A stretch of DNA of 62,886 bases, counting the filler, from Bonamia ostreae (taxonomy: Eukaryota): the NCBI GenBank assembly GCA_040357525.1. It is 52 parts of 52 records of this genome, joined end to end, with 100 filler letters (N's around TTAATTAATTAA, not from the genome) between each part and the next. Parts side by side here need not be neighbours in the genome. Positions count along the whole stretch, not along the records: positions 23,106 to 24,218 come from JBDODL010002665.1; 51 more parts are not named here. One strand, given 5' to 3'. This document shows, piece by piece, positions 4,440 to 58,069 of the stretch. Each line of letters starts with the position of its first letter. The stretch's first letter is position 1. A model generated the notes under the pieces. The model searched no databases and was not told the DNA's origin. It worked only from the letters and a program-made list of their open reading frames with translations. The position numbers were made by a program, and so were the translations under genes.

Positions 4440-4773
4440 TAGTCGAAAAAATAATTAGTCAAAAAAATTTAATTTATCAGAAAAAATTTTGCCAAAAAAG
4501 TTTAATTGACAAAAAGAATTTAATTTATAAGATAATATTTCGTCGAACAATAAAAAGTTAATTTAAATGATTAAAAATATTTCGTCAAAAAAATTTAACT
4601 TAAAAATATTTCGTCAAAAAAATTTAATTTATAACATTTCGTCGAACAATAAAAAGTTAATTTAAATGACTAAAAATATTTCGTCAAAAAAATTGAATTT
4701 ATAATATTTCGTCGAACAAATAAAAAGTTAATTTAAATGACTAAAAATATTTCGTCAAAAAAATTGAATTTAT
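4440..4773. repeat. Intronic compound minisatellite (~70-nt higher-order unit containing tttcgtc)
   Basis: ttcgtcgaacaa recurs at ~4539, 4638 and 4708, immediately upstream of the importin exon. Confidence 0.8.
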
Positions 4774-4873: not shown

Positions 4874-5057
4874 ATTGTTTGCCGTTTTTGCAAACTTTTT
4901 TTAAATAAATTTTATTTTTGCCGTTTTTGCAAACTTTTTTTTTAAATAAATTTAATTGTTTGCCGTTTTTGCAAACTTTTTTTAAATAAATTTTATTGTT
5001 TGCCGTTTTTGCAAACTTTTTTTTAAATAAATTTTATTGTTTGCCGTTTTTGCAAAT
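4874..5057. repeat. Intronic ~40-nt tandem repeat, ~4.5 copies
   Basis: attgtttgccgtttttgcaaactttttttaaataaatttt is repeated and ends ~10 nt before the AG acceptor at 5068. Confidence 0.9.
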
Positions 5058-5068
5058 TTCGGTTAAAG

Positions 5069-5391
5069 CACCAGAAATGCTGAAAAGAGAAAAATGTGAC
5101 AAGAAAATAGATTGGTGGGGCGTTGGTCTTTTGGGATACTTTATGGCATCCAAAAAACACCCATTTTTAGAAAACAATCGTCTTACGAACGAAGAAGAAA
5201 CCATCGAACGAATAAAAAAATACAATCCAATTTATCCAAATCACTTTACTCAAAACTTCATTCGTCTGTTGAGCCATTTGTTAAAGAAAAATCCAGAACA
5301 ACGACTTTCTTTGGAAAGAAACAACATTGAAGAAATTGCAAACTGTTTCCGCTTTTTGAAAGGAGTTAACTGGGATGAACTTGATAAATAA
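5069..5391 (+). CDS. AGC-family Ser/Thr protein kinase, last exon
   Basis: APE motif, IDWWGVG, LLKKNPEQRL and FLKGVNWD; TAA stop. Confidence 0.8.
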
Positions 5392-7309: not shown

Positions 7310-8426
7310 ACCTCAACCCCTGTGGGGCCAACTTGCCACCTTGAGGTCAGGGGCCATCAGGGGTGGGGCGAACTTTTTTAGACTCATGATTGATAGGGCC
7401 AGACCAAACCCCTTCTGTGTGAAAAATGTTTTGGTTCCACTGTTGCTCCATGGGTCCGTTGTGGGGCTGGGGAACTAGAAATCTACCATGACTTTACCAT
7501 TCTAAAGGGGTTAACCGAATCCACTCTTGCCCTTTCTTGGGGCTTGCCCTTCAAGGGATCATCAGAGGGCCCTCCCTGGAGGTCCATGTTGAAAAAATAG
7601 GGTGCCTAGGTACCGATATATGGTTACTGTGCTTGCCTGAAAAAGGTGTAAATTTTAAGGGCTATTTAGTTACTTCTAGGGGCTAAAATGGCTTCTTGGT
7701 CAGTGAATTTTTTAGGTGTTTTCTGGCTACACTGGCTGTCTCAGATGAGTGGGGCAAGGGATCCAAAATTCGAACGAGGGGCCCATGTAAGGGGGCGATC
7801 GCAACCTCCCATGGGGTCACCTTGCCCCTTGGCACCAGGGAATCCCATGGGTTGCCCCCTGTGTTTAAGGTGTTGGTGTTATGGATCCGATGGGGCTAGA
7901 GGCCCCAATGGGTTCGAAATCCCCAGTGGGGTGTATCTCGGCCCCTGTGGGGCCAACTAGCCCCATGAAGACAGGGTAGTATGGTTGATCTTTTTTTTAA
8001 ATAACATGTTTCTGTGGGGGTTGATGGGGTTTCAGGGGCTAGTATGAGTTGAAGGGCTCTTCAGGGCATCGAACCGAAACCCTATGGGGCCAGCTGGCCC
8101 CCTAGGGGTCCGGCACCCTATGGATGTTCACTCTTTTTTCTAAGACCTGGTGCTTTAAGGTGGTTGGGGATAGAGGGCCCTCCGATGGGATAGCCCTTGC
8201 CCCCTTATGGGGTCAGGTAGTCCCATTGAGGTCCGAAACCCCTTGGGTGGTCACCTTTTTTTCTAAGGCATACCCTACTAGGGTTATTCAATGGGACCAG
8301 AAGGCCCCGATTTGTGGGAGGGCCCTCAAAAGGGGCGAACTTGACCCCTGTGGGGTCAATTAGCCCCCTTGGGGTCAGGGGTTATCAGGAGTAGGATTAA
8401 GGGTTAGGGTTAGGGTAAAGGCACTT
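7310..8426. repeat. GC-rich degenerate repeat (host-like) ending in a few TTAGGG units
   Basis: cccctgtggggccaac-like motif at ~7316, 7943 and 8345; gggttagggttaggg at ~8401-8415. ORFs here have no protein-like motifs. Confidence 0.6.
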
Positions 8427-9743: not shown

Positions 9744-9990
9744 AATTTTTATTTCCGACTATTAATTTTTATTTTCGACTATTAATTTATTTTCTTTAAC
9801 TAATAATTTTTATTTCCGACTATTAATTTTTATTTTCGACTATTAATTTATTTTCTTTAACTAATAATTTTTATTTCCGACTATTAATTTTTATTTTCGA
9901 CTATTAATTTATTTTCTTTAACTAATAATTTTTATTTCCGACTATTAATTTTTATTTTCGACTATTAATTTATTTTCTTTAGCTAATAAT
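9744..9990. repeat. 61-nt tandem repeat, ~4 copies
   Basis: taataatttttatttccgactattaatttttattttcgactattaatttattttctttaac is repeated. Confidence 0.9.
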
Positions 9991-12261
9991 TTCGACTTAA
10001 ATTTTTATATTTTTCAGTTTAAACAAAATTTTTATTTTCGATTATTATCTTTTATTTACCTTGACTAAGAATTTTAATTTTTAGTCAAAAAAGATTTAAT
10101 CAAATTTCCCTGCTTTTTAATTTTAATCTCTGTGGAAATGTTGATTCTTCGTTTTCGAAGATATGTCATTGAAATTGCTATAAATTAAATTTTCATTAAA
10201 TTATTAATTGTTATTTTCGACTCAAATTTTATTATCGATTATTGTTTTTATCATTTTTACAAAAATGTTTGTTTTTAGACTAACTTAATGCAAAGCTTTA
10301 GAAATTTATTCTTTAATTTGCAAATTTAAAGCATGTTGATCAAAACGCCCTGCGAAGAAACGAACGTGAATTTGCTAATATTACCGAAAAAGCAATTAGA
10401 AAAGTTGCCGAATGGAAGTTTTATGAAGGAAGACAGAAAACAAGTCTTTCGTTGCGCTAAAATCGCCTTCGAAATAGCAGAGAACAAAACCGAAAACTTC
10501 AACGGTTCTATCGGCGTCATTATCGAACACGAAAAAAGCAATTGGTCCATTGTCCGTATGCTGGTTTTAGTCTACTTTAACAGAAACTCATTGTAAATTA
10601 AAGCTCACGTTAAACTGTACATTAAACAATGACAATATATTTGATATCACATTAAAGCAATTTTTAAAGCTTGAAATAAATATCAATTTTGTGGAATATA
10701 ATTTTTTTAAATTAAAAGATTCTAAAGCAGAAACTGATTTCGAAGCATTTGGTTCATGATGTGTGCGAAGGATATGAAGATTGGAAACAACAAAATTTGA
10801 CAGAGACGATCATGTGCCTTTCTTTACTGTCCACAAATTTCTTGAACATTCTGCGAGAANNNNNNNNNNNNNNNNNNNNNNNNNNNNNNNNNNNNNNNNN
10901 NNNTTAATTAATTAANNNNNNNNNNNNNNNNNNNNNNNNNNNNNNNNNNNNNNNNNNNNACTTGCCGTAAGACCTATATTTTCAGCAGGTAAACGGCATA
11001 ATCTATAACGAAAATAAGGAATTGAATGTGTAAAGCAAAGTTTATTGTTTTGTTGCTATATTTCATGTATTTTGTGTTAGTGTGTAATGCATGATTGATT
11101 TTGTGTGTATGGAGTCAAGTCGTCGTCTTTCTGTGAATGAGTTATTTTTCTTTTCCACATGTCAAGGATCAGTTTCAAAAGGAGGGGTTTTCTATCTGGA
11201 GACAAAATTATGTCAGTTTGTCAGAATAGTTTCATCAACATCAGTTGTTTATTTTTTGTAAAAATAGAAGCTGCTTTGGATTAAACGACATCTAGTAAGA
11301 TACCTTAAACTTTATTTTCGTTCAAAATAATCACACGCAGATTTTATATAGGTCAGTGATTGTAATGACTAAAATTATCTTTTCTCTCTATATTTCAGTT
11401 AGACTATCGAAAGTCGTGTGGGGTTTCAGATGAATATACATATACAGGCCTCCCTCATTATGTTACCAACTTTTGCTCAAGATCAATTGGGGCAATAAAA
11501 CAGGGGATGATAGTATAACGAATTCACTATTGCAGACACTTTACCGAGGAGTCAAACGATATCCAAATCTATAAATTTATTTGGGCTCCGTTCTATATAA
11601 ACATTTAAGTAATTTTGCGTTTAATTCAGCAATTATTAGTAATTAAACTGATTACTTGAATATTTTGTCCTTCCTGTCACACCGCATTCAAAATATAGGC
11701 ATGGTTACTAATCGTAATTGGCATTAATATCGAGAGGAAACCTTATAAAATTTGGCCATTTATTTCTGATAATCAGTGGAATGAACGGTGAAGATAACGA
11801 ACGTTAATCAATCTCATAACTCCGATACAGCAAGTTTGGTTACGCGGCAGCTAAGGTTGTGGCCGCTCAGTGTACCTATGAGTTTGTACCAATGAAGCTG
11901 GTGCTATTTCAGCAGAGACAAGTCATCCTTGTGGCAGACATGGACATCGTTTTCGTTGAGGATTTAGATTAACGTTTGAAACCTTTCCATTTTTTTTGCG
12001 TTCCGTTCGAGAATTGTTCCCTCAGATAGGGACATGTATGTGAAGATGTCCTTAAAGACCCAACTTTAAGTTAACNNNNNNNNNNNNNNNNNNNNNNNNN
12101 NNNNNNNNNNNNNNNNNNNTTAATTAATTAANNNNNNNNNNNNNNNNNNNNNNNNNNNNNNNNNNNNNNNNNNNNCTCTACCACTAAGCTACCGCGACCT
12201 TCATCATCGTCCTGTGATATTCAATGCGTCTAATGTTGATATAGGTACAATTGTGTATTTA

Positions 12262-13264
<1,003 letters not shown>

Positions 13265-13752
13265 CTGAGTTATTAGATTAAAGCACGTATTNNNNNNNNN
13301 NNNNNNNNNNNNNNNNNNNNNNNNNNNNNNNNNNNTTAATTAATTAANNNNNNNNNNNNNNNNNNNNNNNNNNNNNNNNNNNNNNNNNNNNTCATTTATC
13401 GAACACAACGAAAACAGTCCTTTGCGTACGAGATTGGCTGTGATCCTAACAAAGGGCATAATTTTACATCCCATCCGACGTTTCACCGTGTATTATTTAG
13501 TTCGACGCTGTGGCCAATATTGAAACTACAATACTACATCTATCATCTCTTATTCGATTGTTATGACACGTTCAGGTATATCAGGACTTTACTTCAAATT
13601 GCTGTTCTTTGACAATCGTTAACACTGCCATATAGCTATTAAAATTTGGTGGTTGTCTCAAGCCTAAATTGACATTTTGGAATGGGTTTTATACATGCGC
13701 TTCAAAATATGCAATCTTTCTTTACTTTTCTATAAATAGATCAATGTGTTAC

Positions 13753-19366: not shown

Positions 19367-19572
19367 NNNNNNNNNNNNNNNNNNNNNNNNNNNNNNNNNN
19401 NNNNNNNNNNTTAATTAATTAANNNNNNNNNNNNNNNNNNNNNNNNNNNNNNNNNNNNNNNNNNNNCAATTAATTAAAATCTTTTTATATTTTCTGCAAA
19501 TTGACATTTTGCAATCAAAAATTAAAAACGATATGGAAATTTAGCCATTTGAAAACAACAATTTTAAAATAG

Positions 19573-20420
19573 ACCGCCCGGCACTGGAAAAACAACGACC
19601 GCTTTAATATTGGCCAAAATTTTAAACGGCGAAAAATCAAAACATCTTTCATTGGAAGTTTGTTAAATTTCAATTCCAGCTTAACGCTTCCGACGCGAGA
19701 GGAATCGACACTGTGCGCAACGACATTAAACGATTCGCTGAAATGGGACAACTATTCTCGTTTAGAAATTTAAAACTAAAGAAACGGCACAAAATTTATC
19801 ATTTTGGACGAAGCCGACGCGATGACAAATTCTGCTCAATTCGCTTTAAGAAGAGGTTCTTTTGCGCTTTATTGACCGAAAAATCAAGTAATCGAAAAAT
19901 TTACGAAAAACGTTCGTTTTTGCTTCATTTGCAATCACATCAACAAGATAATCCCAGCCATCCAGTCCAGATGCACAAAAATGCGATTCAATCTTCTGAA
20001 CACACAATCCATTCTTAAAAGACTAAAGTTCATCGCCGAAAAGGAAAAGTTTTGAATTTTGACTAAAACAAAAAAGAATTAAAAACGACGAAGAAGGTCT
20101 GAAAACTATAATCGAACTTTCGAAGAACGATATGAGAAACTGTATAAATATTCTGCAGTGTTGTTGGTACGGCCACAACGAGATAAATGCGGAAAATGTC
20201 TATAAGAGTGCGGGGATCCCGCAGAAGAAGTCGATCGACAAGATCGTCGAATATCTTTTAAACGAGGAATTCCATTTTTGCTTTAAAGTCATTTCGAATT
20301 TTCAAGTCGAAAATGGCGTTTCTTTGGACGTGTTAGTGGCGTTAATATTTGAGAAGGTGCAAAGAATCGATTTTCCGGAGAACGTTTTGTCGTTTGTTAT
20401 AGAAAAAATGGCTCAAACTG
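19573..20420 (+). CDS. RFC5: Replication factor C small subunit (human RFC5 / yeast Rfc3 type); introns 19658-19679, 19760-19781, 19856-19888, 20049-20076
   Basis: Splicing restores PPGTGKTT, LELNASDARGIDTVR, IILDEADAMTNSAQFALRRVIEKFTKNVRF, IIPAIQSRC and DMRNCINILQ. Confidence 0.92.
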
Positions 20421-20424
20421 GTTA

Positions 20425-20579
20425 TTATTTGATCAAATTTTGATTTTTTTTGTCGTTTTACAATATTTTGATCAAATTTTGATTGTTTTTGTCGTTTTAC
20501 AATATTTTGATCAAATTTTGATTGTTTTTGTCGTTTTACAATATTTTGATCAAATTTTGATTGTTTTTGTCGTTTTACA
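20425..20579. repeat. 39-nt tandem repeat starting just inside the next RFC intron
   Basis: caatattttgatcaaattttgattgtttttgtcgtttta x~4 after the GT at 20421. Confidence 0.9.
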
Positions 20580-23105: not shown

Positions 23106-24056
23106 TGGCGAGATGTTCGATGCTTCCCGATTCGCCTATATTTACAAAAATCACAAAGTAATTAAATGTTTATGCTCGAAATTCGTCGATAGACGACATG
23201 AGATTTATACAAAACACGAGGTTACTTGCGAATTCGCAGCAAAAGCAATATATAATTTTGCAAAAAGCTAAAAACCCGAAAACGTCTTAAAGATGGTTAA
23301 TTAAAAAAGTTGATACATAATTACATTAGATAAAACCGGAGTGTGGCCTGAAAGAAAAGGTGTTGAGCCCTCTGGATTTCCTCAATCTGTTGAGAGAGGA
23401 GACGTTGGCGTAAATGTAATATGCGTAGACTGCATACGAAGGATTTTCGCTATGGTCCCAATCTTGCGGTTTGGTTTTATAGTCGATTATCTGTTCCGTA
23501 AAATTTTAAAACTTCCAATACACTTTCGTCGTCTACTGTATCGAACCCGCCAACTAAATTTTTTTTAAAAACTCAATTGCAAAAATTTGAATATCTTTGG
23601 GTGGGACTGCGGGTCTAGCGTCGCTTCAAAAATGGGCTGGAAAATGTTAGATAACATGTCTTGAAAAGAGTTTAGCAATCTAAAATTTTTTAGGTAAACT
23701 TGTTTGCTTTATAAATCTCGAAGAGACGCGGAATCTGGATCATCCAGACGTTTTTGCTGGAGACCAGATCGTTGTCTACAATCCATTCCGACAGTTTTCT
23801 CCACTCGTCTCTTTTCCTAAAATCACTTTAAAACTTGCCGTAGATCGATAGGCGGTATTCGTTGAATTGGTATTTCTAAACTTTTAATTTAAACCTGTTC
23901 TTCCAAATATTCGAAGACTTCCTTCGTTAGTTCGGAGAGGTATCTTCCGTTGATGTAATTGGAAGTTTTCAGAAATATCGAACGCAGCAAACTCGATCCG
24001 ACTGGATTGTATTTTTGGTTGAACTTGTCGAATCTGTGGAATGTTTGTTTGTGCGC
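23106..24056 (-). CDS. AMPD: AMP deaminase, internal part; introns 23876-23894, 23817-23834, 23680-23699, 23554-23572, 23491-23512, 23136-23336
   Basis: Spliced product [110 protein letters not shown]. Confidence 0.95.
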
Positions 24057-24318
24057 CTTTAAAAGGGGTCAAATGGATATCGAAAGCTCATGGCAACGAC
24101 TGCCTAAACAAATTTGCTTTCCGGCAAAAATTTAATGGCCAAAATTTGCCTAAGCTCAGGTCGCGCAAAAAATGTTTTCCAACTAAATTTAATCAAAAGA
24201 GGATGGATTCTCCCTGGTNNNNNNNNNNNNNNNNNNNNNNNNNNNNNNNNNNNNNNNNNNNNTTAATTAATTAANNNNNNNNNNNNNNNNNNNNNNNNNN
24301 NNNNNNNNNNNNNNNNNN

Positions 24319-25431
24319 GAATAAACATCGGGCTCGAAACATTGGATACACCTCTCCCGGGGACTAAAATTTGGAGGTGGGATTCTAGTGGTAAACAATC
24401 AGCACTTTGAAAAAATAATGTTGGTAACATCTTTAGATTTGGATATCCATCCCTTTAATTTTCATCCGTAATAAATCACTCTTTGTGAAAAAAAAAAATT
24501 GTTTGGGAAACATTGAAGACCCCTATCCAAAAGCTGATATTTTGAGGATGGGGTTCTAGTGGTCAACTACCACCACTGTAAATAAATGGTGATAGTACCA
24601 TCTCTTGTTTGGGAAATTTGTTCGCACAATTTTATTTATAATGTATCACATGTACCGTAGTGAATAAACGTATGATTTAAAGCATCAACGAACCTCTACA
24701 CCGGGGAGTTATTTTAGGTGATGTATTGTTTATCTACCATGGCTACGATAAAATAGTAATGTTGCCATCTCTTGTATAGAAGAACCAGTTCCTTCAATTT
24801 TTACTCAATTGGTATCTACCTGTGGACTGGAATTCGTAGAGTGGATTTAATTGTCAACTACATGTACCACTGTAAAAATGGTGATGGTGCAATCTCTTGT
24901 TTTGTAGATCCACCCCTTCAATTGTCGTTCATAATGTACATGTATTACACGTAGTGAATAACAATCTGGTTTAAAAAGATCGAAGAACTATGCCCCGGGA
25001 CTATGATTTAGAAGATTAGTTCTCATGGTTAACTGTGAAAAAATAATGATGATACCATCTTTTGTTTTGGAGATCCACCTCTCCAAGTTTTTTTTAATAA
25101 AACATTACACTTATTGTATAAATATCTGATAAGGAAACATCAAGGACCCCTGATCAAGACACTCAAATTTCGAGGGTGGAGTTTCCAGTGCTCAACTATT
25201 ATCACTGTGAAAAATAAGCAATGGTACAATCTTATATTTTGTATATTTGCTCCTTCACTTTTTATTCACCATGTATTTAACTTCGTGAATAAACATCAGC
25301 TTGGGAAACATCGTAGATTCCTACCCCAGTGACTGAATATGGATGATGGATTTGTAGTCAACTACCACCATTTTGAAGAAATAGTGATCGTGTCATCTCA
25401 TGTTTTAAAGATCCACCCCTCCAATTTACAT
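24319..25431 (+). repeat. Degenerate ~165-bp tandem satellite (host)
   Basis: gtgaataaacatc and ccatctcttgtttt..agatccaccc motifs recur every ~150-170 nt. Confidence 0.8.
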
Positions 25432-30396: not shown

Positions 30397-31176
30397 ATCC
30401 ATTACAGCATTCTCTAAGGTCATTCCTTGGCATTTGTGAATAGTGAGCGCCCAGGAAAGATTCAATGGAAGTTGTTTCCGACAAGCGAGTACAGATCCAT
30501 CACCCTTTTCTATCGACCAAGTATTTCGTTCTATTATAATCGGTTCGTTTATCGTCTTAAATTGAACGACCGGCAAATATTCGTCTTCTTTCTTTTCGTA
30601 GAAAAAGTCTGTCACTTTCCCCCTTTTCAATTAAAATCGTTTGTGGTCTAACTAAAGCTAAATCTCGACAGATTTTAAGACAATTTATCAATAAACGATA
30701 ATCCATTCACCAATTCGTCGCTTATGTTTTTGACAAGAATAACAGGCGCCCCGATCTTAAGAACAAGACGCAGTGGCGCAGGGCAATTCGCAAAAAGGTT
30801 CTTCAAATAATCGCTTGGCAATCTGATCGTCGAAGAATCTTTAGCTTCATAAAAGTGCGCCTTAGTTTTTAAAGCTTTCAGCATCAGCGCATTCTTTTTG
30901 GCGACTGTATTTCTGTTATTTTTAAATTGAAAACTAAAACTAAAATTGAAAGCGCAAAAAAATTAAAGATCAAACTTAAAGTTCTGATATTAGAACCTGT
31001 GGCAGTGAATCATGACGGAGTCTTTGGGAAGAACGTTGGTCGAGGTTTGAGATAAAACTGCTTTTGTTTTGGGCGTCATGACGCCTTTTCTGAGTTCAGA
31101 CAACATGTCGATGAAGCTCGTGTCAGTTTGTCTGAAAACTTTTGTCAATTCGAAAATGTTTTCATCTGAGATGCAT
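30397..31176 (-). CDS. PIF1: Pif1 family DNA helicase, 3 internal exons
   Basis: ELTKVFRQTD..FIDMLSELRKG, LVLKIGAPVILVKN...LVNGLSGKV and RKQLPLNLSWALTIHKCQGMTL; exons joined in phase by GT-AG introns. Confidence 0.9.
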
Positions 31177-35797: not shown

Positions 35798-36331
35798 TTA
35801 AGCGACCGACTCCATTTCCTGTACAAGAGATTGATCAACTTCGCTTTTAAGTTTTGATGAAGTGAGAAGATGATAATCAAATCCAGAACTAAATTGAGTC
35901 TTCACTGGAAGCACCCAACAAACGGGATTTTTCCCAAAAACGTTTTCAAAATTAGCCTTTTTCCCGCCCAAGTCATATGGACTTACCATCTAATAAAAAA
36001 AATTAGAAAAATTTAGCAAAGAATGGAAATTGCAAAAACAGAATTTCTAAAGTTGGAAAATCTCAATTCCAATTGTGTTTTTTCTGCGAAGACGAGTCGC
36101 AACTGATAATTGAAGAACGCCCACAAAATGAGATTTAGAACGCATTGGAAGAAATATCCTCCGACGAAAATAACTCCTTTTTCGAGTTTGTTCTAAATTG
36201 TATAAAAAAACATTTCTAAAATGGTCGATTATTATTGGCAATCCAGCCAGGATGTAGCACGTGCTAATAATGCTGCCCCAGAATAACAACAAAATGAAAT
36301 ATTTTTGATTGTTTTGGCCGATGCAATTTAA
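35798..36331 (-). CDS. DHHC palmitoyltransferase, C-terminal half; 19-nt intron 36193-36211 and a second ~49-nt intron
   Basis: NCIGQNNQKYFILLLFW, TTxE-like KTQLE and SPYDLGGKKANFENVFGKNPVCWVLP. Confidence 0.85.
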
Positions 36332-44050: not shown

Positions 44051-46101
44051 AAAAACCGACCTCGGAAAAATTTTCCATGAAAAAGTATATTTATAGGTGT
44101 TTTAAATTCTATAACTTCAATCTTTTTCCACCTTTTTTCATTTGGGATGTTTAAAACATTTCTTCTTTTATTTATATTTTCCTATACGAAGGCTACAAGG
44201 ACATAGATCGGATGCTTCGCCCCCTTAACAAGTTAGGCCCATTTCTACTTATTGATGGGCTATACAGACACGCTCCTTTTGTTCTTCACTTATAATGCTA
44301 ATTTTTCTTGCTTATTTTCTTTTACTTTGGAACAATAATTATTACTTCTTTTGTGTCTTTAAAAGGTTCTATTTTCCTTCCGTACCTAAGACCAAAATCC
44401 TACTGTGCAAGAAAACACAGAATGGCTATTGATAATTCGTCTTTTTTTTTTTTAACAATCTCACATCCTTATTATTGTCAATTCCAAAACAATACAAATT
44501 AGCCATTATTTGGTCCTTTACATTACGTTATTTCTTTGCCTTATTTTATGTACGTATAGTATTGATTTACAGCCCCAGATAAATGACTCAGATAAATGAT
44601 TGTTTCTCTGATGGAGGAGGGGAGAGCTTAACCTATCTGTGCGTTATGGCTCCGACAAGAAATTATATTTAGCTGGAGCTATATCTCCTTGATGGTTATG
44701 ACCCTCTCTGAATCAAACTTTCTGGATTGTCTCCTCTTCCTTTCCACCCCCCAGTTAAACTCCTCCCCGCAGAGCCATACGGACACAGAGCGGNNNNNNN
44801 NNNNNNNNNNNNNNNNNNNNNNNNNNNNNNNNNNNNNTTAATTAATTAANNNNNNNNNNNNNNNNNNNNNNNNNNNNNNNNNNNNNNNNNNNNGTGTACC
44901 AGTATAGCACAGGTAAGAGTACTATATTTTTGATATAAATCTACGTCTACGATTGTTAGTGAATACTTTTGAAATTTGAAAGGTGATTCTCTAAGCAAAA
45001 TATCTCAAGGATTGGTTACATGTGTCTGTGGAAAGTTTGCATGGTTTTTTGAGAAAAGCACTTCAATAGTTAAAGAGATTTTGCCTAGCTCAAGTTTTTT
45101 TTAACGTAGGTCAAACTTGAAAGTTCGAGGTCACAGGGTGGTGAAAACTGTGATACCACAAGGGATACAAATATTAAATATGACCGTCCTATAACTCACA
45201 ATGAAAACATAAGAGCTAAGTTCAAATTGAGTAAAAAGAAGAAGAAAAACCGCAACTGAAGTGATGGGACATAGAATAATTGATTTAGAAAGATGTGCAG
45301 GTTGATGCAACTTAGTGCAGTTTTTGGTAATCTTAAAAATAATTTGTTTTCATTTCATACATACCTATGCATGAGTTTTTGATTTTAATATTATTACACT
45401 ACATCAAGATACTTGTATATCAATGACTAATCACTGATCTTCTGTTATTGAGAAAATTCATAAATATTTTCCTGATGTATTCCCATGTAAAAAGTTGATC
45501 CTAATTGTGGCTTAACTGCAGGTATAAACGACCGACATGTTACTCCTTCTGGGCACTTGGTCCAACACCTGGTATGTCCAGGGTTCCATGTTTGTCCAAA
45601 CCTTAGTTTGTAGGAGTTTATTTTGTAGGACTGGAGATCAGAGATTGATTACTGTTTCTTATCTTCACATTTTCACCCTACCCCCTGAACTCGCATTTTA
45701 AACAAACTTTATTCTGCATATTGGTACTAGTAAGCATAACCATAGTCTTAAAATTATCTTCCTTATCCCAAACGTCGATATCTTCCTACCTAGATATCTT
45801 TTCACATCGCGATGAATAATCATGGTCCTGTTGCAATATTATTCCCATATGTTCACAGGTAAAACTTTGATCCATGTTGTACTTTTAACCTACAACTGGA
45901 TACAAATATTTTAATAATTTTGGATAATGCATGGTCTTTCATTTGAACCAATTTGAATTCTGATTAACAAAAGGTAATCTGTGCCAAATTTGCTTTAAAT
46001 CNNNNNNNNNNNNNNNNNNNNNNNNNNNNNNNNNNNNNNNNNNNNTTAATTAATTAANNNNNNNNNNNNNNNNNNNNNNNNNNNNNNNNNNNNNNNNNNN
46101 N

Positions 46102-48417: not shown

Positions 48418-48715
48418 NNNNNNNNNNNNNNNNNNNNNNNNNNNNNNNNNNNNNNNNNNNNTTAATTAATTAANNNNNNNNNNNNNNNNNNNNNNNNNNN
48501 NNNNNNNNNNNNNNNNNAAATAAAATCTTTTAAAATATTTAATTTTATAGAAATAGCTTTCTAAGTAAATTAAAAACGATATAGTAACAGAATGCATTTC
48601 GGAAGATGAAGACGACAAGTAAAATTTTAAGAAAACAGACCCGATTTTAGACAACAAAATCGATTCCCGTTTGAAAAATTTAAATTTACAAAAAATTAAA
48701 ATTTTCGAAAATAAG

Positions 48716-49215
48716 AGCAGAAAAAACTCAACGACGATAAAAGCGAAAACAACGTCAAAAATGACATCGAAGAAGAAAACATCAAAAGCAAAACACCTCT
48801 CCGCGACAGAGACTCCGACACCACGTTTTTCTCAAACAAAAACGGTTTGCAGTCGATACCAAGTCTCAAAGACTTTTTGGTCTTCGATCGCACCAAAGAT
48901 TACGAGAAAGAGCCGCTGGAGACGTTCTCTCTCGTATTTCCAACGCGCGAGCTATTGAGACCGGGAAACAAGAGACTTTTGGAGTCGTTTCAGAAAAGAA
49001 TAGCCAATTTTTGCATTGGAAAGTATCCGCTTGTTTACGACGTGGAGGATCGGAGAGTGGTCGTTTTGAAGTATAGAGACAAGCGGTGGACGTGGAATCA
49101 GGAATGGGACAAAGAGACGAAATATCCGCGGAGGAAGTACTTTGCGGAGAGTCGGCCGAGAGTAAACGGCAAATTTGCGAAGATAAGAAAAGACGAGTTT
49201 TATGAAGATGAGTGA
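48716..49215 (+). CDS. CCT-domain protein, last exon
   Basis: KYRDKRWTWNQEWDKETKYPRRKYFAESRPRVNGKFAK fits the CCT consensus RY.EKR......K.I.Y..RK..A..RPR..G.F. Confidence 0.82.
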
Positions 49216-50034: not shown

Positions 50035-50276
50035 TCAGCTTTGTTTTTTAATGTAATGTTCTTTTAAGTAATTTGAAACGATAGCTTGGGAGCCAAAATA
50101 TTTCAGAACGCATCTGTCAATACAGACGCCTTCGCCAACGTTCAAATCCGCGGAAGAAAAATCGTCTACACATTTCTTGTAACAAATCTCGTGAATACTT
50201 TAATTAAACTCTAAAACTTTCTGTTCAGATTCTCTAACCCTAATTGTGCAATTCTTTTCTCGAAATCGGAATCCAT
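50035..50276 (-). CDS. TIM10: Small Tim chaperone Tim10; 20-nt intron 50198-50217 (absent from the ORF track)
   Basis: 73-aa spliced product with twin CX3C: ICYKKCVDDFSSADLNVGEGVCIDRCVLKY. Confidence 0.88.
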
Positions 50277-50353: not shown

Positions 50354-50811
50354 ATGTCTTTTCTGTCAGCTCTAAAATATTTTGCTAAAAGCATTATTTC
50401 CTATATAATCAACTTAGTCGACAGCTACGCAATGTTATGTATCGGTCTTTTTACAAGTTTATATTTATAATTAAAGCTTCCATAATTGTCTTCTTAAGCT
50501 TCTCCACTGTTTATTTAAACGTCCTTTACAGGTTTTAACTGGAATTAAAAAAAGTCTTCCGATCGCGATTCGATCAAATCCTCTTTTGGCAACACCGACT
50601 CTGCTTTTGTTCATCGCCGCTCAAATTTTGATGTGGCTTAGCTTTCTGCGCGCCGTTTTGACGGACAACTCTGTAAAAAATCACATTCAAATTTCTGATT
50701 TAAATTCGACTGCAGAGAAAAAATGGTGCGTCAAATGTACTTATCTGAAGCCGGAAAATGCTCATCACTGCAGAAAGTGCAACGCTTGTGTCGTTGAAAT
50801 GGATCATCATT
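50354..50811 (+). CDS. DHHC palmitoyltransferase, N-terminal half; introns 50457-50476 and 50532-50554
   Basis: KWCVKCTYLKPENAHHCRKCNACVVEMDHHC; two tiny introns restore the frame from the ATG at 50354. Confidence 0.88.
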
Positions 50812-52561: not shown

Positions 52562-53165
52562 ATGGCCAATACCGAACCAGATTTTGGTAAATTTTTGTGA
52601 CCATTTAGAATCAAAAGATTTCTATAAAATCCTCGGCGTCGAAAGAAATGCCACAAACAAGGAAATCAAAAAAGCGTATCGATATCTCGCCTTAAAATGG
52701 CATCCAGACAAAAATCCCAAAAATCGCCGAATGGCGGAACTAAATTTCAGAAAAATCAGTGAAGCCTTCCAAGTCCTTGGAGACCACAAGAAAAAACGTC
52801 AATACGATCGAGGCGGTTTGGAGAACATAAATTTCGGAAACCATTTCCATTCCGCGGATGATATTTTCAGGAAGTTTTTTGGTACAGACAATCCTTTTTC
52901 GAGTATGTTCGAAGATTTGGGTTTCGGGTCTGGCTTCGAAATGGGCGGTTTTGGTTCCGAGTTTAGTTCCGAGGACGATTTGAAATCAGGAAAGAGTTTT
53001 TATTCTTCTTCAACTACGCGCAAGATAATAAATGGGGAAGAGACTGTGGAAAAGACGATCAACAAGAATGGGAAATTGACTAAAGAAGTTTATGTGAATG
53101 GACAATTGACTAGAAAAATGATCGACGGTGTAGAACAGAATCTGCTCGAAATAAAAGGCGATTAA
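52562..53165 (+). CDS. DnaJ/Hsp40 class B (DNAJB6-like); 22-nt intron 52587-52608
   Basis: J-domain with WHPDKNP, a G/F-rich region and an SSSTTRKIING C-terminal domain. The true ATG is at 52562 after splicing. Confidence 0.92.
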
Positions 53166-56964: not shown

Positions 56965-58069
56965 CCCAATTAGTTTGTGTAGATCGTTTACATCATTTCC
57001 ATTATTTATTTTTTGCCAAAACTCGTGTTTTCTTTGTTTAATTGTATTTTTTATTTTTTTCCGTAGTATGGCCAATTTTTTATGACCTTCAATCATCCAG
57101 ATTTTGTCGTTCCGCAGAATTTTACACCTGAGTGAATTCCGCTCTTTAGTCAAATTCGAGAGTTCTTTTGACCACCATGGGCAGCCATTATATTTTCGTT
57201 GATGGGTTATGATTCTCTTTTTACAAGATAGTCCCATGCAGAGTAGAATAATTTTCTTAGTATCTTTCCAGATATCTTTTTTATTGGCAATATTGTTGAC
57301 ATCTAGTAAGTATTTATTCAATAATTTTTGATATAGTTGTATATTCAGCGTATTTTTGTTGTATCTGATTATTGGTTTTTCTAGTTTTCTTTTTTTCCAA
57401 AATTGTTGATAAACATCGATCAATATAATTTTGTGGTCGGATTCTATAATTGGTTCCTCAGCGTAGTTATTTTCGTATTTCAGATTTTCGTTAATAATAA
57501 AAAAGTCGACTAATCTTTTCGTTCCTTTCGTATTAACGAGTGTTGTTTTCTTCGTAAGCAATATTTTGCACTTGTTATTTTTCGATATATTTTGAATGGC
57601 ATTCTTTAATTTTTCATTTTTCTTTCTTTTGTCATATGCAAAGTTTATGTTAAAGTCTCCTCCAATAATGTCAAACTTGTATTTGATCGTAAATATTTCG
57701 TAAATCCTTTCAATAATTTCAATATTTAGGTTCGGAGGAATGTAAATGTTTCCGATGTAGAAATTATGCTTTTGAATTTTGAGTTTTATCCCCATGAATT
57801 CGATTCCACTCGATTCAAGAATATTAATATTCAGTGTTTCACATTCTATTTCTTTTCTCACATATATTGCTAGACCACCACCTTGTTTATTTTTCCGATT
57901 TTGTGTGTAGCAGTTAAAGTTTTTTTGTTTCAAAATTTGGTTTTTCTTCAACCAAGTTTCTTGAATGAGGAAGACGTCCAAGTTTTTCTCATTAAGTTGT
58001 ATTGTTAATTCGTCATATTTTTGTTTGATGGATCTCACATTTTGAGACGCAATTCTTAAAAAGAAGAAC
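56965..58069 (-). mobile_element. Non-LTR retrotransposon ORF2, APE endonuclease domain and linker
   Basis: Uninterrupted frame with SQNVRSI, DVFLIQETWL, GGGLAIYV, NIYIPP, GGDFN, SDHK and PWWSKEL. Confidence 0.9.

Follow-up and report, generated by a model that had tools for sequence, protein, structure and literature searches.

The AMP deaminase gene of Bonamia ostreae raises a specific question: are the five segments of 18–22 nt that interrupt its reading frame genuine spliceosomal introns, or are they assembly errors, signs of a decaying gene or sequences removed at the DNA level? B. ostreae belongs to the Haplosporida, within the Ascetosporea (Rhizaria), and an RFC exon found here is identical to a public Bonamia ostreae protein. 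The window, by which we mean the whole 62,886-nt stretch of DNA that was analysed, consists of 52 length-sorted records of 1,104–1,119 nt; with linkers of the form N...TTAATTAATTAA...N it falls into 55 ACGT pieces, and it does not represent one locus. The AMP deaminase record occupies 23106–24218 (1,113 nt, G+C 0.376), with the gene on the minus strand, and covers only positions ~249–470 of the 630 in the PF19326 profile. Its features, in the direction of transcription, are listed here, where AMPD stands for AMP deaminase and X1, X2 and X4 are public sequencing runs.

24057..24058, minus strand: AG acceptor of an upstream intron whose donor end was not located; a contig of run X4 leaves the DNA sequence at 24056.
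23895..24056, minus strand: AMP deaminase exon 1 of the record (PF19326 positions 249–303, E 3.9e-24; alignment).
23876..23894, minus strand: mini-intron 1, 19 nt, GTTT..TTTAG (gap-free junction against 8/8 AMPDs; unchanged in the X1 and X2 DNA contigs).
23835..23875, minus strand: exon 2, 41 nt, covering AMPD profile positions 304–316 (alignment).
23817..23834, minus strand: mini-intron 2, 18 nt, with an in-frame TAA seen by eye (alignment and motif).
23700..23816, minus strand: exon 3 (PF19326 positions 317–357).
23680..23699, minus strand: mini-intron 3, 20 nt (alignment; X4 contig ends at both edges).
23573..23679, minus strand: exon 4 (PF19326 positions 353–390).
23554..23572, minus strand: mini-intron 4, 19 nt (alignment and motif).
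23513..23553, minus strand: exon 5, 41 nt (alignment).
23491..23512, minus strand: mini-intron 5, 22 nt, 3' end ACAG (alignment and motif).
23337..23490, minus strand: exon 6 (PF19326 positions 411–459).
23136..23336, minus strand: long intron, 201 nt, GTTTTA..ATATAG (X4 joint skipping 201 nt, CT..AC on the plus strand).
23106..23135, minus strand: exon 7, truncated by the contig end (matches GEAGDTEHL of AMPDs).

The segments are present in the DNA, and once they are spliced out the frame reads as AMP deaminase without interruption. Removal of the GT-AG segments of 19, 18, 20, 19 and 22 nt, together with that of 201 nt, leaves seven exons that join, by coordinate and with a script check, into 652 nt encoding 217 aa. 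An earlier reading of the DNA, made from the sequence alone, had claimed that AMP deaminase is restored by excising introns of these five sizes within ~400 bp, and the aligned 217-aa frame, with the mini-introns inside 404 bp, bears this out. All eight AMP deaminases tested align to residues 1–216/217 of the spliced frame. The best match, a Gonapodya protein, shows 58.9% identity (E 4.9e-95) with a single 2-residue gap away from the junctions, and there is no alignment gap at any of the six junctions. The ORF pieces follow one another along the PF19326 profile (249–303, 317–357, 353–390 and 411–459), and the exon pieces score 40.8–85.4 bits against a cutoff of 27, which places the fragment within the AMP deaminase family. 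The standard code assumed by the same reading also holds, as both this frame and the spliced RFC frame described below align under it and TGA and TAA end frames. Four of the five mini-introns have frame-shifting lengths (not multiples of three), and the 18-nt one carries the in-frame TAA. All five run from GT to AG and begin with GTTT, as does the 201-nt intron. Because the per-position frequency in the window is 0.0082 for GTTT and 0.044 for AG, five such pairs at homology-defined junctions would be far beyond chance. We propose that the five segments are, very probably, genuine 18–22-nt GT-AG spliceosomal introns that make up the short mode of an intron population.

It is homology that carries this case, since statistics based on ORFs alone appear chance-like. 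Across the window, 212 spliced ORF chains were obtained with GT-AG ends, compared with 173–368 for seven decoy dinucleotide pairs, and of 169,134 deletions of 15–35 nt that bridge ORFs, 412 had GT..AG ends against an expected 398. In a window this AT-rich, GT..AG and decoy ends showed no discriminating power in ORF bridging; decoys bridge ORFs equally well, and frame restoration by deletion of a GT..AG segment therefore proves nothing by itself. Motif counts by length showed at most a marginal excess, with 114 GTTT..WWAG units of 18–23 nt in the window and 103.65 in shuffles. The description of the ultra-short introns as dense, given in the sequence-only reading, is thus apt for particular genes but not for the window as a whole.

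Public sequencing runs allow the segments to be followed in DNA and, with some caution, in RNA. Nine runs from five studies contain the stretch or part of it, and none of them is recorded as RNA. Four were examined: X1, X2 and X5, from three studies, are DNA-like with a depth of ~3–8x, and X4 is RNA by guess only, with contig depths of 286–1,337 compared with 3–8 in the DNA runs. This RNA-like run contains joins across the 201-nt intron and at the exon-1 acceptor. The first appears as a joint of depth 762 from 23134 to 23336, and the 201 nt left out have GT..AG ends on the minus strand; the unspliced contig has a depth of 286, and the intron appears to be retained in roughly a quarter of the X4 depth, contig depths being a rough measure. 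The second is seen in a 568-nt contig that matches 24027–24056 and then departs from the DNA. Translation of the sequence beyond that point carries the frame on into an AMPD-like upstream exon, and 24056 is therefore a true exon edge. At mini-intron 3, contigs of ~1,094x and 954x stop exactly at the two edges, 23679 and 23700, and the contigs that contain the intron reach only 57x and 25x; its removal from RNA is nearly demonstrated. Introns 1, 2, 4 and 5 are presumably removed from RNA as well. The share of sampled words found in X4 is 0.70, compared with 0.67 expected without introns 1, 2, 4 and 5 and 0.85 if all were retained, although with 106 words and one SNP this comparison is suggestive only. 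X4, which is RNA-like by guess, gave junction rows for none of the five mini-introns; it has no cover over 23372–23637 and 23790–24017, and such holes prove nothing.

These data bear on the alternative that survives best, namely that the introns are real but that some boundaries are misplaced or some introns are often retained, which would make the list of lengths partly wrong. Introns 1, 2, 4 and 5 were placed by homology and motif alone, intron 5 ends in ACAG rather than WWAG, and partial retention has a precedent in the 201-nt intron (286 unspliced vs 762 spliced, roughly one quarter). For each mini-intron, however, only one choice of GT..AG ends restores the frame and leaves the alignment gap-free, and we regard errors of this kind as improbable. 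Less credible is the view that the segments stay in the mRNA, either because the gene is a decaying, frameshifted pseudogene or because ribosomes shift frame or bypass them. The missing junction rows in X4 could be taken in its favour, but a 217-aa frame that keeps 59% identity to distant AMPDs and has gap-free junctions is unlike decay, and X4 depths of 600–1,300x indicate strong expression. At intron 3, the contig ends and the contrast in depth agree with removal from RNA, and public RFC models splice out segments of this kind. Taken together, we consider retention in the mRNA very unlikely.

Assembly or sequencing indels in a truly uninterrupted gene were one of the explanations that the sequence-only reading had named as fatal to its own claim, and a window of 52 short records (1,104–1,119 nt), sequenced at a DNA depth of ~3–8x, is the sort of fragmented, low-coverage assembly in which they might be suspected. 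The X1 DNA contig, however, spans the whole stretch in one piece, those of X2 cover nearly all of it in two pieces separated by a 2-nt gap within exon 5, and those of X5 cover two parts that include introns 3 and 4; every mini-intron covered is kept letter for letter. The contigs differ only by three substitutions, by a 9-nt insertion upstream of exon 1 and by 3 nt missing from the 201-nt intron; exons and mini-introns are unaffected. Since the segments are unchanged in DNA contigs of three studies, they are not assembly indels, and random indels would not all take the form GTTT..AG; what probability this explanation keeps is slight. Removal at the DNA level, as in the internal eliminated sequences of ciliates, has in its favour a size similar to that of the short eliminated sequences of Paramecium, but the segments have GT..AG rather than TA..TA ends, all examined DNA contigs retain them where ciliate sequences of this class are missing from somatic DNA, removed forms occur beside retained ones only in the RNA-like run, and the host is a rhizarian and not a ciliate, which leaves this idea with next to no likelihood.

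The RFC small subunit gene on 19467–20579 offers a second view of such introns, aided by public gene models. Four of its segments were resolved.

19658..19679, plus strand: RFC mini-intron, 22 nt, unused in the public model (homology).
19760..19781, plus strand: RFC mini-intron, 22 nt (same splice in public protein P0275).
19856..19888, plus strand: RFC intron, 33 nt, with an in-frame TGA (homology; spliced in the public model).
20049..20076, plus strand: RFC intron, 28 nt (homology; also spliced in P0125).

Joining across these GT..AG segments of 22, 22, 33 and 28 nt gives a frame of 254 aa; aligned with full-length RFC proteins, it shows one gap of a single residue and 44.8% identity (E 4.9e-77). 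In a profile-free search of 1.84 billion representatives, a 144-aa public protein was 100% identical to the last RFC exon. It and a public protein of 205 aa are both named 'Replication factor C subunit [Bonamia ostreae]'; the 205-aa one is identical to residues 50–254 of the spliced frame, and the second 22-nt intron and the 33- and 28-nt introns are therefore spliced in it. Both public models (144 and 205 aa) begin at an internal Met and are without the P-loop exon (19574–19657), which sits behind the first 22-nt intron, the one of the four that the public model leaves unused. No GT donor was found on the record for the RFC exon expected upstream of 19574; the true 5' exon is not on the record. 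The record terminates in a 39-nt tandem repeat (20428–20579).

For genes other than AMP deaminase and RFC, introns were assigned by ORF continuity, one-sided Pfam matches and reading by eye.

50198..50217, minus strand: Tim10 mini-intron, 20 nt; an ATG-started exon joined to the zf-Tim10_DDP ORF (ORF continuity and motif).
50457..50476, plus strand: mini-intron of the first DHHC gene (DHHC-a), 20 nt (ORF continuous from its ATG into the DHHC domain; no homology spans the junction).
50532..50554, plus strand: DHHC-a mini-intron, 23 nt (ORF continuity; no homology across the junction).
36193..36211, minus strand: mini-intron of the second DHHC gene (DHHC-b), 19 nt.
35990..36039, minus strand: DHHC-b intron, 50 nt (read by eye).
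52587..52608, plus strand: DnaJ mini-intron, 22 nt, the sole one with a GTAA start; a signal-peptide-like exon joined to the J domain (ORF continuity only).
30913..30996, minus strand: Pif1 intron, 84 nt (read by eye by comparison with known Pif1 motifs; Pfam Pif1_2B match).
30623..30696, minus strand: Pif1 intron, 74 nt (read by eye).

In all, 18 introns are supported, with lengths of 18, 19, 19, 19, 20, 20, 20, 22, 22, 22, 22, 23, 28, 33, 50, 74, 84 and 201 nt. Twelve fall within 18–23 nt and six within 28–201 nt, and the window therefore does not hold a uniform ultra-short class with a size range of 2–4 nt: the proposed length of 18–22 nt fits all five AMP deaminase mini-introns but does not describe the population. 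The claim that introns of 19–23 nt recur in other genes stands for RFC (where introns of 28 and 33 nt occur too) and, as read, for both DHHCs, Tim10 and DnaJ, but a CDK example was not confirmed. No intron was resolved at the kinase exon 4990–5388, which follows a 41-nt tandem repeat, and an HRDVK match on 44894–46001, tried as a CDK, looks like chance. An importin exon of 259 aa, with only two matches at 25–27% identity, has no intron.

The ends of the introns are far more alike than their lengths. All 18 have the GT and AG ends of U2-type spliceosomal introns, the five in AMP deaminase included; T follows at +3 in 17 of 18 (GTT) and at +4 in 15 of 18 (GTTT). The 3' consensus is W-AG, with A at −7 in 14/18 and at −8 in 11/18, and the introns are 64–90% A+T. 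GTTT and WAG are common to them and the interiors differ, so that conservation does not extend over the whole intron as it does in mikrocytids. Lengths divisible by three are found in one of the 12 mini-introns and in four of all 18 introns.

We propose that the five segments are ordinary GT-AG introns shrunk to near a functional minimum. By intron definition, the spliceosome would recognise each one as a single unit spanning its whole length and cut it out of the pre-mRNA; the 5' site is T-rich (GTTT), and the likely branch A lies ~7 nt before W-AG, within an A-rich stretch. Retention of any of the five would be expected to break the frame or introduce a stop. We infer both the branch site at A(−7) and the dependence on the spliceosome. 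Because the introns of 28–201 nt have the same GTT 5' end, one machinery, and not a special one for the short introns, probably serves all sizes. The usual 5' splice site is GTRAGT, from which the GTTT consensus here departs. Scans of the window for snRNA and tRNA genes found none. A supplementary sheet of PMC11069148 lists 'mRNA splicing, via spliceosome' as enriched among 'B.ostr. losses' (9/328 vs 77/12517, FDR 0.0064). These enriched splicing losses in B. ostreae hint at a reduction of the spliceosome, a hint weakened by the incomplete assembly; the sequence-only reading had proposed a reduced or modified spliceosome.

Several known systems offer points of comparison. The nucleomorph introns of Bigelowiella natans have GT-AG ends. 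They measure 18–21 bp (as summarised in PMC10245619), and thus resemble those of Bonamia in their ends and almost in their size mode; in B. natans, however, the introns are those of a vestigial algal nucleus, span a narrow range of sizes and include no long ones, whereas Bonamia has long introns beside short ones in its own nuclear genome. The suspicion that small introns had already been reported for ascetosporeans proved correct: in Mikrocytos mackini and Paramikrocytos canceri, 217 of 224 introns are 16 nt and seven are 17 nt, according to PMC10245619. Mikrocytid introns are described there as few, highly conserved in sequence and absent from metabolic enzyme genes, and the spliceosome as very small. 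Judged by this account, mikrocytids share with Bonamia both the class Ascetosporea and spliceosomal introns near the lower size limit. The mikrocytid introns, at 16–17 nt, are conserved throughout; in contrast, those of Bonamia are 18–23 nt with a tail to 201 nt, are conserved only at their ends and occur in a metabolic-enzyme gene.

Among ciliates, introns of ~25 bp are given for Paramecium and Nyctotherus (PMC5014332) and of 15–16 bp for Stentor (PMC9505925, PMC10245619, PMC13644364). Short ciliate introns resemble those of Bonamia in having a minimal-length mode and in breaking the frame when retained, but ciliates are free-living with altered or standard codes, whereas Bonamia is a parasite with the standard code. 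Myxobolid myxozoans and the dicyemid Dicyema japonicum have median introns of 22–27 bp (PMC13644364, 2026). On that description they are, like Bonamia, parasites with weak splice-site motifs and a median intron length of twenty-odd nucleotides, but they are animals, and the likeness would be convergence only.

For Bonamia itself, PMC11069148 states, from an annotation by funannotate with transcript reads, that B. ostreae 'carry canonical introns' and gives their mean number per mRNA as 2; intron lengths for the species are found neither in its text nor in four of its supplements. Intron numbers and sizes are said to be drastically reduced in Ascetosporea (PMC13746701, 2026), and PMC9329632 has no word starting with 'intron' or 'splic'. 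Introns of 18–23 nt or a GTTT 5' site were not found in the open literature for Bonamia or any haplosporidian; older actin-gene papers on haplosporidians may bear on this. As far as searched, the tiny introns of B. ostreae are latent in public gene models and have not been described.

The RNA-like run may also record splicing on the opposite strand. One X4 contig, parsed by hand, joins 23669 to 23694–23701 and then to 23724 at a depth of ~75–100x. The two plus-strand skips, 23670–23693 (24 nt) and 23702–23723 (22 nt), both run from GT to AG with a GTTT start and leave an 8-nt exon between them, and their branch points fit the start of the X4 contig 23642–23679 and the end of the contig 23700–23753. 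They look like chance mini-introns spliced in antisense RNA; a reverse-transcription artefact is possible.

A broader evolutionary reading, tentative and on balance doubtful, is that miniaturisation and the GTTT site are older than mikrocytids and are the main mode in Haplosporida, with the known cases arranged as a gradient along one trend and with a machinery permissive enough to act on antisense RNA. If so, introns of 18–23 nt should occur beside longer introns with the same ends in Haplosporida, and the published split between the 'canonical introns' of Bonamia and the tiny introns of mikrocytids would become a gradient. The Bonamia machinery would then remove chance antisense GTTT..AG units of 22–24 nt, leaving an 8-nt exon, and mini-intron 3 (25–57x vs ~950–1,090x) would be spliced more completely than the 201-nt intron (286x vs 762x).

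The main import of mini-introns in B. ostreae lies in annotation quality and in the history of intron shrinkage in Ascetosporea. As a pathogen of flat oysters B. ostreae is subject to regulation, and comparative work on the origins of parasitism in Ascetosporea draws on its sole genome annotation. If most of its introns are ~20 nt, gene models that are careless of this size lose exons, and gene-loss inferences become less safe. The expectation that ordinary gene callers would miss genes is upheld in part: the RFC model is without its P-loop exon, and AMPD exon 1 is absent from public proteins of at least 105 aa, the best of 340 significant matches (369 candidates) having 73–77% identity, although AMPD models that are shorter or begin further downstream may exist. 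Nevertheless, in the public RFC protein the 22-, 33- and 28-nt introns are spliced at precisely the boundaries expected from homology. B. ostreae would add a new lineage to those with near-minimal introns, and in it short and ordinary-length introns with the same splice motif occur within one gene, so that splicing efficiency can be compared within the same transcripts. Bonamia is also a possible intermediate next to the 16–17-nt introns of mikrocytids.

Other records of the window show features of their own. AT-rich tandem repeats at 4874–5056 (41 nt), 4532–4773 (71 nt) and 9744–10081 (61 nt) adjoin genes or lie inside them; the 41-nt unit upstream of the kinase exon starts with GTTTGCC, and this repeat might lie within an intron. 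On the minus strand of 12262–13291, two tyrosine-kinase-like domain pieces (profile positions 104–148 and 159–212) stand ~570 nt apart; the spacing may mark a long intron, or else the record stems from another organism. The record 7310–8426, at 52% G+C compared with ~30% elsewhere, has TTAGGG repeats near one end and no Pfam match, and may come from another organism in the sample. By eye, the record 24319–25431 has the look of a diverged satellite, with units of ~150–170 nt and a conserved 'catctcttgtttt' core; a tandem-repeat finder reported nothing there at score 150. The CCT motif is found mainly in plants and algae, and an ORF at 48715–49212 (plus strand) carries one (PF06203, E 3.8e-7). 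An AT-rich frame of 368 aa, open across the record 56965–58068 on the minus strand, has LINE-type endonuclease/exonuclease/phosphatase domains and only two relatives, at 30–32% identity, and is probably a retroelement of the parasite.
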